A stretch of DNA of 1,199 bases from a phage. This document shows, in pieces, positions 2 to 837 of the stretch (positions are counted from its first letter, which is position 1; each line of letters opens with the position of its first letter). The notes under the pieces were generated by a model. The model was not told where the DNA came from, did not search any database, and saw nothing but the letters and a program-made list of their open reading frames with translations. Position numbers and translations under genes: made by a program. The stretch is from sequence record OR846207.1; one strand, written 5' to 3'.

Positions 2-151
2 AACCAAACCCTGCTTGACCAGCGCCTTTCAGATCTTGAACTAAAAGATTTGGATGCGCAAATATCAGAAGCAGAAGCCAAGCTATCCAGCTTAAACCAC
101 CGCAGGAAGCAAATCCGCAACAGAATTACTCAGGGACGCGGAAGCTGTTGA
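2..151 (+). CDS. 3' end of a CDS truncated by the window start; 49 C-terminal residues (…NQTLLDQRLSDLELKDLDAQISEAEAKLSSLNHRRKQIRNRITQGRGSC), stop TGA at 149-151; function unknown
   Basis: Only plus frame open across 1-151 (frames 1 and 3 hit stops at 16-18 and about 40). The minus strand has stops in all three frames here. Residues are charged with a heptad-like Leu pattern and a basic tail. No start codon in the window, so it is absent from the ORF track. Confidence 0.45.
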   Translation, partial: NQTLLDQRLSDLELKDLDAQISEAEAKLSSLNHRRKQIRNRITQGRGSC

Positions 152-160
152 AATCCTAGT

Positions 161-478
161 CTATTTTTTCTCAGAGCTCATATTGTAATAGGTGGTATAA
201 ATAGAGATTGATTTCTGACATGCTTCAAGAAATTGCTGCGGAGTCATCCCAAGCCTTGCTTGCTCTGTAGTAAGGAATCTCTGTAAGAATTCATTCCCAC
301 CCGGCATGTTTGTAGATTCTTGGAATATTGCCATTTGTTTGATTGCACCACACATACCAGCCATTTTCGAAGCTATCATGAGGCCTTGTATTTCATCAAA
401 ACTGCTATCGTCTGATTTTGTTTCTGCGTTAGCTATGCTCGAGAGACACAGGAGCAATAGGATAGCGATGCGTTTCAT
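161..478 (-). CDS. Small secreted/periplasmic protein of unknown function, 105 aa, with a Sec signal peptide; co-transcribed with the Mnt-like repressor
   Basis: N-terminus MKRIAILLLLCLSSIANA-ETK has a classic n-region (MKR), a hydrophobic core and an AXA (ANA) signal-peptidase I site. The mature part of about 87 aa has two Cys (GMCGA, EACQK) that could form a periplasmic disulfide. No lipobox is present (LLLC does not fit L-[AS]-[GA]-C). Its ATG (478-476) overlaps the upstream TGA (477-475) as ATGA. An SD-like AAGGGTG lies about 5-7 nt upstream inside the preceding gene. Confidence 0.75.
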   Translation of the reverse strand: MKRIAILLLLCLSSIANAETKSDDSSFDEIQGLMIASKMAGMCGAIKQMAIFQESTNMPGGNEFLQRFLTTEQARLGMTPQQFLEACQKSISIYTTYYNMSSEKK

Positions 479-723: not shown

Positions 724-743
724 AACACACCTTTGGTATTCAA

Positions 744-755
744 TTTGATATCAAA
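744..755. promoter_or_regulatory. Perfect 12-bp palindrome TTTGATATCAAA, candidate RHH operator; extends to an 18-bp near-palindrome CAaTTTGATATCAAAgTG (741-758)
   Basis: Read directly from the sequence. It lies 21 bp upstream of the Mnt-like start codon and 18 bp upstream of the -35 of the plus-strand promoter. RHH repressors bind short dyad-symmetric operators. A related half copy TTTGCTATC occurs at 791-799. Confidence 0.45.
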
Positions 756-763
756 GTGTATGC

Positions 764-774
764 AAAAAAATTTT
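764..774. promoter_or_regulatory. A7T4 tract (AAAAAAATTTT) abutting the -35 element, possible UP-element or intrinsic bend
   Basis: Read directly from the sequence. A/T tracts just upstream of a -35 hexamer are the usual position of UP elements. No functional evidence. Confidence 0.3.
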
Positions 775-801
775 GACTAGATATACTCACTTTGCTATCT
801 T
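773..801 (+). promoter_or_regulatory. Sigma70-like promoter for the Arc-like operon: -35 TTGACT (773-778), 17-bp spacer, extended -10 TGcTATCTT (793-801)
   Basis: TTGACT is 5/6 to TTGACA. Spacer is 17 bp. TATCTT is 4/6 to TATAAT and is preceded by a TG extended -10 motif. Predicted start near 808 gives a leader of about 30 nt to the ATG at 838. Confidence 0.5.
779..800. promoter_or_regulatory. Inverted repeat AGATA-N12-TATCT across the promoter spacer and -10, candidate second operator
   Basis: AGATA at 779-783 and its reverse complement TATCT at 796-800. The position between -35 and -10 is where I recall the Arc operator sitting in P22 Pant. Arms are short, so chance occurrence is plausible in AT-rich DNA. 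Confidence 0.25.
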
Positions 802-827
802 TTGTATTCGAAAAGAGTTGTTTATGT

Positions 828-833
828 GGAGGG
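828..833 (+). promoter_or_regulatory. Shine-Dalgarno GGAGGG for the Arc-like gene
   Basis: GGAGGG lies 4-5 nt upstream of the ATG at 838 and supports 838 over the TTG at 802 as the true start. Confidence 0.6.
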
Positions 834-837
834 TAAC

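Follow-up and report, generated by a model that had tools for sequence, protein, structure and literature searches.

The DNA analyzed here, referred to as the window, is a stretch of 1,199 nucleotides (record OR846207.1) that is 100% identical to Salmonella phage S.Kent 1-2-1. It is matched by approximately 245 of 5426 complete E. coli genomes, a count that includes partial matches to any part of it. The window carries two small divergent genes, an mnt-like gene and an arc-like gene, whose products are designated Mnt' and Arc', with a short intergenic region between them (Table 1). In near-identical E. coli prophages, the order of genes is ejection-protein genes, accessory genes, mnt' (leftward), arc' (rightward), a small ORF, ant, the tailspike gene, and the integrase gene. 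The ant gene itself lies past the end of the window and is placed from two relatives, L002 and L003, which are 97-99.7% identical to the window and in which ant is found downstream of arc' and the module is flanked by ejection-protein genes on one side and the tailspike gene on the other. The window has the arrangement that characterizes a P22-type immI module, in which an mnt-like and an arc-like gene, both encoding ribbon-helix-helix proteins, diverge from a short regulatory region. By its gene content and position, the window is identified as the immI-type region of a P22-like prophage, a variable module also called an "ant moron".

Both proteins belong to well-defined families. Mnt' matches the Pfam family Arc (PF03869; E 1e-10), and its best solved structure is 1mnt (E 2e-6), with an alignment over residues 12-73 that runs through the C-terminal helix. 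The protein consists of a ribbon-helix-helix head and a C-terminal helix homologous to P22 Mnt, and its tail, FAQQEADKFKEALLETLKTMYG, is kept in seven homologues. An N-terminal ribbon-helix-helix domain followed by a predicted C-terminal helical tetramerization region places Mnt' in the Mnt repressor family. Arc' also matches the Pfam family Arc (E 5e-12), and its structure matches are Arc and AmrZ. It fits the Arc repressor family, which is defined by a ribbon-helix-helix protein of approximately 53 aa encoded by the first gene of the ant operon.

In P22 Mnt, the bases of the operator are contacted by Arg2, His6, Asn8, and Arg10, as established by mutagenesis in the Sauer laboratory. Only the equivalent of Arg10 is kept in Mnt', in which the sequence SPTTVR replaces the PHFNFR of P22 and His6 and Asn8 are changed to Pro and Thr. 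The P22 Arc contacts Gln9, Asn11, and Arg13 correspond to Lys7, Leu9, and Arg11 in Arc'. The conserved Arg of the DNA-facing strand is the sole contact residue common to P22 Mnt and Arc and the proteins of the window. Since the contact residues differ from those of P22 Mnt and Arc, a different specificity is expected. A preliminary description of this DNA had proposed such a difference from the operator sequences, and it is borne out both by the sequence of the sites and by the base-contacting residues of the two proteins.

Several other reading frames were observed around the two genes. A 105-aa ORF (161-478, minus strand) has a signal-peptide-like N-terminus, MKRIAILLLLCLSSIANA; no Pfam match was found for it, and L002, a 97% identical E. 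coli prophage, has no annotation for it. The mnt' stop codon (477-475) and the ATG of this ORF (478-476) overlap, which makes co-translation with mnt' probable. On the plus strand, the ATG of an ORF at 987-1199 overlaps the arc' stop codon (ATGA, 987-990). This ORF encodes one hydrophobic stretch, has no Pfam or Rfam match, and corresponds in L003 to an 89-aa hypothetical protein encoded between arc' and the antirepressor gene. In P22, the arc-ant junction carries the sar antisense RNA, whereas an ORF lies between arc' and ant here. An Rfam search of the window gave no match, but the arc'-ant junction sits outside the window. Positions 2-151 (plus strand) hold a gene's 3' end, which shares 94% identity with hypothetical genes in phages Kapi1 and Emek; the remainder of the window is not common to these phages, which places a mosaic boundary near 151-160.

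Table 1. Positions of genes, promoter elements, and repeat units in the window
Feature	Sequence or size	Positions	Strand	Remark
mnt-like gene (Mnt')	82 aa	475-723	minus	ORF
Intergenic region	114 bp	724-837		between divergent mnt' and arc'
Unit u1, weaker	CTTTGGTATTC	731-741	plus	overlaps mnt' ribosome-binding site (other strand); four-site motif
Candidate left operator core, 18-bp near-dyad	CAATTTGAT/ATCAAAGTG	741-758		8/9 pairs
Unit copy overlapping u2	CAATTTGATATC	741-752	plus	1 mismatch
Unit u2	CACTTTGATATC	747-758	minus	0 mismatches to 12-nt unit
A7T4 tract		764-774		between candidate left and right operators; overlaps -35
-35 hexamer of arc'-ant promoter	TTGACT	773-778	plus	promoter scan
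AGATA arm	AGATA	779-783		partner TATCT at 796-800; probably no separate element
Unit u3	CACTTTGCTATC	788-799	plus	0 mismatches; contains TTTGCTATC
-10 hexamer of arc'-ant promoter	TATCTT	796-801	plus	promoter scan
Unit u4, weaker	CTTTTGTATTC	799-809	plus	covers expected transcription start; ~10 bp from u3
Shine-Dalgarno of arc'	GGAGGG	828-833	plus	
arc-like gene (Arc')	50 aa	838-990	plus	ORF

Promoters and repeat units in the intergenic region

A standard promoter scan found only one promoter-like site in the intergenic region, in which the two hexamers listed in Table 1 are separated by 17 bp and a TG is present at 793-794. This site is the top rightward match and stands at the identical place in every clade described below, and its position matches that of P22 Pant. 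No leftward promoter for mnt' was found by the same scan. A looser scan yielded two candidates, one P22-like with its -10 at 778-786 and the other, TGaTATCAA, inside u2, and both were judged unconvincing.

The preliminary description had pointed out a perfect palindrome, TTTGATATCAAA (744-755), between the divergent genes and a 9-nt sequence at 791-799, overlapping the -10, that repeats its left arm with one change. Both are found exactly where they were placed, and the single change is correct; the match, however, is 12 nt long rather than 9. The palindrome and TTTGCTATC represent a single 12-nt unit, CACTTTG[A/C]TATC, in opposite orientations (u2 and u3), and these two copies match each other as an inverted repeat at 11 of 12 positions. 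Unit u3 covers the TG of the extended -10 and four bases of the -10. The 12-bp palindrome is the center of the near-dyad at 741-758, and u1 and u4 form a direct repeat matching at 10 of 11 positions. The near-dyad, the full length of the half-site match, and the weaker copies at 731-741 and 799-809 had been missed.

Shuffled sequences provided a measure of what could be expected by chance. Under dinucleotide shuffling, a perfect 12-bp palindrome is present in 30% of cases for the 1199-bp window and in 3.7% for the 114-bp intergenic region; considered singly, the 11/12 inverted pair (747-758 and 788-799) is reached by 14% of shuffled intergenic regions. The four-site 10-mer motif, allowing at most two mismatches, is reached in the intergenic region by 5 of 300 shuffles (1.7%). 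The sequence TTTGNTAT occurs four times in the window, all within 732-798, while 0.28 occurrences are expected and none of 200 shuffles reached four. An AGATA/TATCT inverted repeat spanning the spacer had also been proposed as part of an operator. Its arms are at the positions reported, but repeats of this 5-bp type occur at least once in 90% of shuffles, and the region holds five compared to a mean of 3.0. Its arm centers are 17 bp apart, which is not one helical turn, and it is kept only in the window and Serratia clades and not in the 611R6, L046, and PhiR12 clades. The palindrome fits no IHF consensus on either strand, as judged by eye. Taken alone, the window makes a modest and suggestive case for operators; the comparative data carry it.

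Layout and sequence of the units in related phages

Related loci were collected through a protein search of phage records, from IMG/VR, from one Serratia genome, and through core scans of viral and metagenome contigs. Genome contigs scanned with the Mnt' protein gave one locus only, Serratia L011. Six clades share the core GTGTAnnCAAAAAAAYTTTGACT, which includes the A7T4 tract: the window clade, Serratia L011, 611R6, L046/L228, PhiR12, and L047. The tract is invariant across the six save for a single T/C site. It may serve both promoters as an UP element, or its intrinsic curvature may draw the two candidate operators toward each other.

These clades also share a layout in which mnt' is separated from the A7T4/-35 core by two sites, a third lies over the -10, and a fourth follows downstream; their positions relative to the -35 are about -42, -25, +16, and +26 to +36. 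The four-site motif score is reached by 0 to 5 of 300 shuffles per clade, and the u1 copy is found at the same relative position in all six. Part of the conservation of u1 and u3 has other causes, since the mnt' Shine-Dalgarno coincides in part with u1 and the extended -10 is included in u3. The equivalents of u4 are palindromic in 611R6 (TGTGATTCACA) and in L046 (TGTGATATCACA). The u3-u4 spacing is 10-11 bp in the window, 611R6, and L046 clades and 21 bp in the PhiR12 clade, u1 and u2 overlap or abut differently between clades, and the orientation of the units is non-uniform. A rigid geometry, with 7-mer sub-sites CAC-N-GTG every 11-12 bp, was rejected, as it fits the window and 611R6 and fails in PhiR12. 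At the place of the palindrome, the 611R6 and L046 clades have 8- and 10-bp palindromes, respectively; the PhiR12 clade has no palindrome there, and two abutting inverted units form a 25-bp dyad. In PhiR12_5 (L005, an Escherichia phage; 1235-1734) and also in L047, the mnt'-arc'-ant module is inserted into a siphovirus genome, where the lambdoid tail genes L and K flank it. In the more distant immI of CUS-3-type loci (L075-L091), the direct repeat ATGCGTACC is found twice, 21 bp apart, flanking the -10 of a TTGACT promoter, and this distance equals the two-turn spacing of u3 and u4 in the PhiR12 clade.

Three types of unit were distinguished, and they correspond one-to-one to three Mnt' heads. 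First, the unit CACTTTGnTATC of the window clade and Serratia accompanies the head SISPTT[VI]R. Second, the unit CACnGTGATAT of 611R6, L234, L046, and L228 accompanies RDI[AS]PY[SG]VR. Third, the unit CACnGTGTAGCA of PhiR12 and L047 accompanies RDISP[LM]GIR. Compared to the Mnt' heads, the Arc' heads show no such correspondence. Loci with the Arc' head IS[KR]I[LV][VI]RMP have window-type units in some cases (window, L231, L124) and GTGATA units in others (611R6, L234, L228), while the GTGATA unit is found with two different Arc' heads in L046 and L228. Natural recombinants extend these observations. Mosaic Mnt' proteins (L124, L147, L162, and others in IMG/VR) join a window-type head to a 611R6-type tail, and the L124 locus keeps window-type units. 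In L228 and L214, an L046-type Mnt' head and intergenic region are combined with a window/611R6-type Arc'. Between the window and 611R6, whose Arc' proteins are 86% identical, 5 of 47 positions differ in the central block (744-790), compared to 11 of 20 and 7 of 19 in the unit-bearing flanks, so that the change is concentrated in the units, even beside arc'. This pattern points to Mnt' as the most likely reader of the units. The clades are related, however, and linkage may cause the intergenic region to be inherited together with mnt', so that hitch-hiking could explain part of the co-variation.

Variation within the window's own clade provided additional evidence. Seventy-one copies were reduced to 15 haplotypes, one of which is the Serratia locus L011 and 14 of which represent the clade itself. 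In 7 of these 14, a T>G change at 751 gives TTTGATAGCAAA, which breaks the palindrome and keeps the minus-strand unit; read on the minus strand, the variant is CACTTTGCTATC, exactly the u3 of the window. In three haplotypes, a C>A change at 795 converts u3 to CACTTTGATATC. Positions 751 and 795 are the only recurrent polymorphisms within 727-809 in this clade and fall at the same unit position in u2 and u3. The one-base difference between u2 and u3 is a tolerated position toggling at both sites. Because u2 and u3 swap the differing base in natural variants, they are most likely bound by the same protein. A palindrome that is not conserved had been named as grounds for refuting the proposal, and this applies in part: the perfect palindrome is lost in half of the haplotypes, but the site is kept.

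Operator models for the intergenic region

The region 724-837 is best explained, probably though by no means certainly, by one family of operator units that would be read by Mnt' at two locations, a right and a left operator. The right operator would consist of u3 and u4 (788-809) and would lie over the start point and both the -10 and extended -10 elements of the promoter expected to transcribe arc', the small ORF, and, in relatives, ant. A Mnt' tetramer would occupy it with one dimer per unit, about one helical turn apart, and the bound protein would exclude RNA polymerase, leaving ant silent in the lysogen, as P22 Mnt does at Omnt. The left operator would consist of 741-758 and u1, upstream of the -35 and between the rightward promoter and the mnt' start codon, and would sit over the -10 or in the leader of mnt' under either candidate promoter. 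Its occupancy would lower the expression of mnt' in a negative autoregulation, and it may also aid occupancy of the right operator. The repeats with their statistics and their placement on a consensus promoter, the layout kept across clades, and the co-variation with the Mnt' head are observed; the binding, the stoichiometry, the direction of the effect, and the position of the mnt' promoter are inferred. Points against the model include the modest statistics of the window itself, the possible linkage to mnt', and the other causes of conservation of u1 and u3. In addition, the model contains no Arc' operator and is in that respect incomplete, the spacing of the units is non-uniform, and no leftward promoter was found by the standard scan. 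A more inclusive version, which is possible but unlikely, holds that Mnt' units bracket both divergent promoters across a bent A7T4 tract as a single operator code, that Arc' has no operator in the region, and that in the PhiR12 clade dimer and tetramer compete for one set of sites. If this version is true, Mnt' would silence ant and limit its own synthesis.

The preliminary description had instead suggested two distinct operators, possibly one per repressor, as in P22; the palindrome would then serve one protein and AGATA...TATCT together with TTTGCTATC the other. Both repressor homologues are present and have different reading heads, and the P22 spacer contains Oarc, with Omnt following immediately after the -10, which would fit such a division. 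However, the palindrome and the promoter site are 11/12 identical and exchange their single difference in natural variants, so that one and the same 12-nt unit is involved. The 5-bp repeat, at chance level and lost in three clades as described above, has one feature in its favor: in Serratia, its outer pair is changed from A...T to T...A with complementarity kept. The spacer does not follow the Arc' type, given that L228 has a window/611R6-type Arc' and an L046 spacer. Two classes of site are conceivable on another basis, as u1 and u4 resemble each other more than either resembles u2 or u3, but across ten natural head combinations the unit type follows the Mnt' head only. An assignment of one operator to each repressor is unsupported by these data and appears improbable. 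What is supported of the earlier proposal is that these sequences are good operator candidates in a divergent mnt/arc region like that of P22 immI.

A second alternative is that the units are read by Arc', or by both proteins, in which case Arc' would silence the two divergent promoters after infection. A precedent is P22 Arc, whose single operator serves to repress Pant as well as Pmnt. In PhiR12 and L047, the heads of Arc' and Mnt' are almost alike (RDI[AS]PLGIRIP, comprising the N-terminal arm and the DNA-reading strand), and both proteins should therefore read the same four units there. In addition, no separate Arc' operator or second family of sites was found in the window. The unit type nevertheless fails to track the Arc' head, both between the window and 611R6, L234, and L228 and between L046 and L228, and the Arc' of L231, a window-type locus, carries K7R with its sites unchanged. 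This possibility is judged to be no more probable, and no less, than that of one operator per repressor.

Several specific ideas on how the units are read were tried and rejected. Lys7 or Arg7 of Arc' as the cause of TTG or GTG in the unit fails on the same L231 locus. The spacer element GATATA (780-785) as an Arc' operator fails on L228, which has a window/611R6-type Arc' but the L046 spacer TAATATTA. The sequences GTATTC/GTATGC (736, 758, 804) as a family of Arc' sites are not kept in 611R6 despite nearly the same Arc', and AmrZ-type GGC half-sites for Arc' are absent from the window, as judged by eye. An N-terminal-arm Arg (RD motif) as the reader of GTG was also rejected, since Kapi1-type proteins have the Arg but AAC/GTT operators.

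A third alternative regards the repeats as RNA or promoter signals, in which a u2-u1 hairpin in the leader would hide the mnt' Shine-Dalgarno and the TG-N-TAT cores would serve as extended -10s of divergent promoters. The minus-strand RNA of 775-721 folds at -10.7 kcal/mol (z = -1.97), with CACUUUG pairing with CAAAGGUG, but the consensus across clades yields a weak structure of 5 pairs (-2.85 kcal/mol). The clades show one compensatory pair, and two copies of a single binding site would be equally expected to co-vary in this way. In L234, two G>A changes in u1 destroy the DNA site and would keep G.U pairs in the RNA. As for promoter signals, the extended -10 falls within u3, and the minus strand of u2 carries TGaTATCAA; in the PhiR12 clade, however, u4 is placed 21 bp past the -10, where it has no role in the promoter. 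Furthermore, no mnt' leader hairpin would include u3 and u4, yet they change in step with u1 and u2, and the window has no Rfam match. These observations make this explanation very unlikely. Least probable is that the intergenic region, being rich in A+T, contains functionless repeats that are alike by chance, since the same four-site layout is found in six clades with different unit sequences and polymorphism is confined to one tolerated unit position, even though the palindrome and the inverted pair are each within reach of shuffled sequences.

Comparison with P22 and other ribbon-helix-helix systems

P22 Arc and Mnt are textbook models of DNA reading by ribbon-helix-helix proteins and of antirepressor silencing in a prophage. 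The region studied here resembles P22 immI in several respects. The mnt-like and arc-like genes diverge, a strong rightward promoter occupies the same relative place, ant lies downstream, and the module has the same position between ejection and tailspike genes. The candidate repressor sites lie over the spacer, the -10, and the start point, and Oarc and Omnt of P22 are annotated across the stretch that corresponds to u3 and u4. There are also clear differences. The intergenic region is 114 bp long, compared to 90 bp in P22, which is 24 bp shorter. P22 has two unrelated dyads, a 21-bp Oarc and an Omnt with a 17-bp core (annotated as 23 bp), and nothing upstream of the -35, whereas one unit family is found here about four times, including a candidate operator upstream of the -35. 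This putative left operator (741-758 and 731-741) has no counterpart in P22, whose Mnt is not known to exert negative autoregulation through an operator of this kind. The P22 type of Omnt, one 17-bp dyad right after the -10, is also found in L073 and in Kapi1-type loci. In the window, u3 and u4 are direct repeats, and the sequence following the -10 holds a 6/8 dyad at 799-815, as judged by eye, rather than an Omnt-like 17-bp dyad. Compared to the separate 21-bp spacer dyad of Oarc, no second family of sites was seen in the window, and its spacer does not follow the Arc' type.

The ant morons of epsilon34, CUS-3, Kapi1-type phages, and ES2 represent the same variable module in the late operon of P22-like phages (PMC2629481). 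In the literature consulted, the P22 version is the only one of these modules to have been studied (PMC2629481; PMC8022706). The other ant-moron clades keep the single dyad of P22, and the four-unit layout is limited to the six clades with the GTGTAnnCAAAAAAAYTTTGACT core.

Other members of the superfamily offer partial parallels. CopG, omega, and MetJ bind arrays of short sub-sites that are about one helical turn apart, direct or inverted, and overlap the promoter. Units u1 to u4 are likewise short repeats around a promoter, and array binding is putative here; those proteins differ in acting in plasmid copy control or metabolic regulation and in having tails that are not homologous. AmrZ of Pseudomonas aeruginosa (PDB 3qoq) is the second-best structural relative of Arc', with which it shares a Lys/hydrophobic/Arg pattern on the DNA-facing strand. 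It binds two short half-sites with an A/T-rich linker (PMC3325190). The AmrZ half-sites are GGC, which is absent here, and the likeness is a resemblance that assigns no site to Arc'.

Collectively, these sequences are very probably operators with a new specificity in an immI-type switch. The system is a differently wired variant of a well-known kind, with one family of sites repeated about four times and an additional candidate operator on the upstream side of the -35. The gain is incremental, as the kind of system and its general mechanism are already known. The clades provide three natural pairings of head and operator as well as head/tail recombinants, a ready set for testing rules of recognition. 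These pairings could predict cross-immunity at the antirepressor level among prophages of E. coli, Salmonella, and Serratia.
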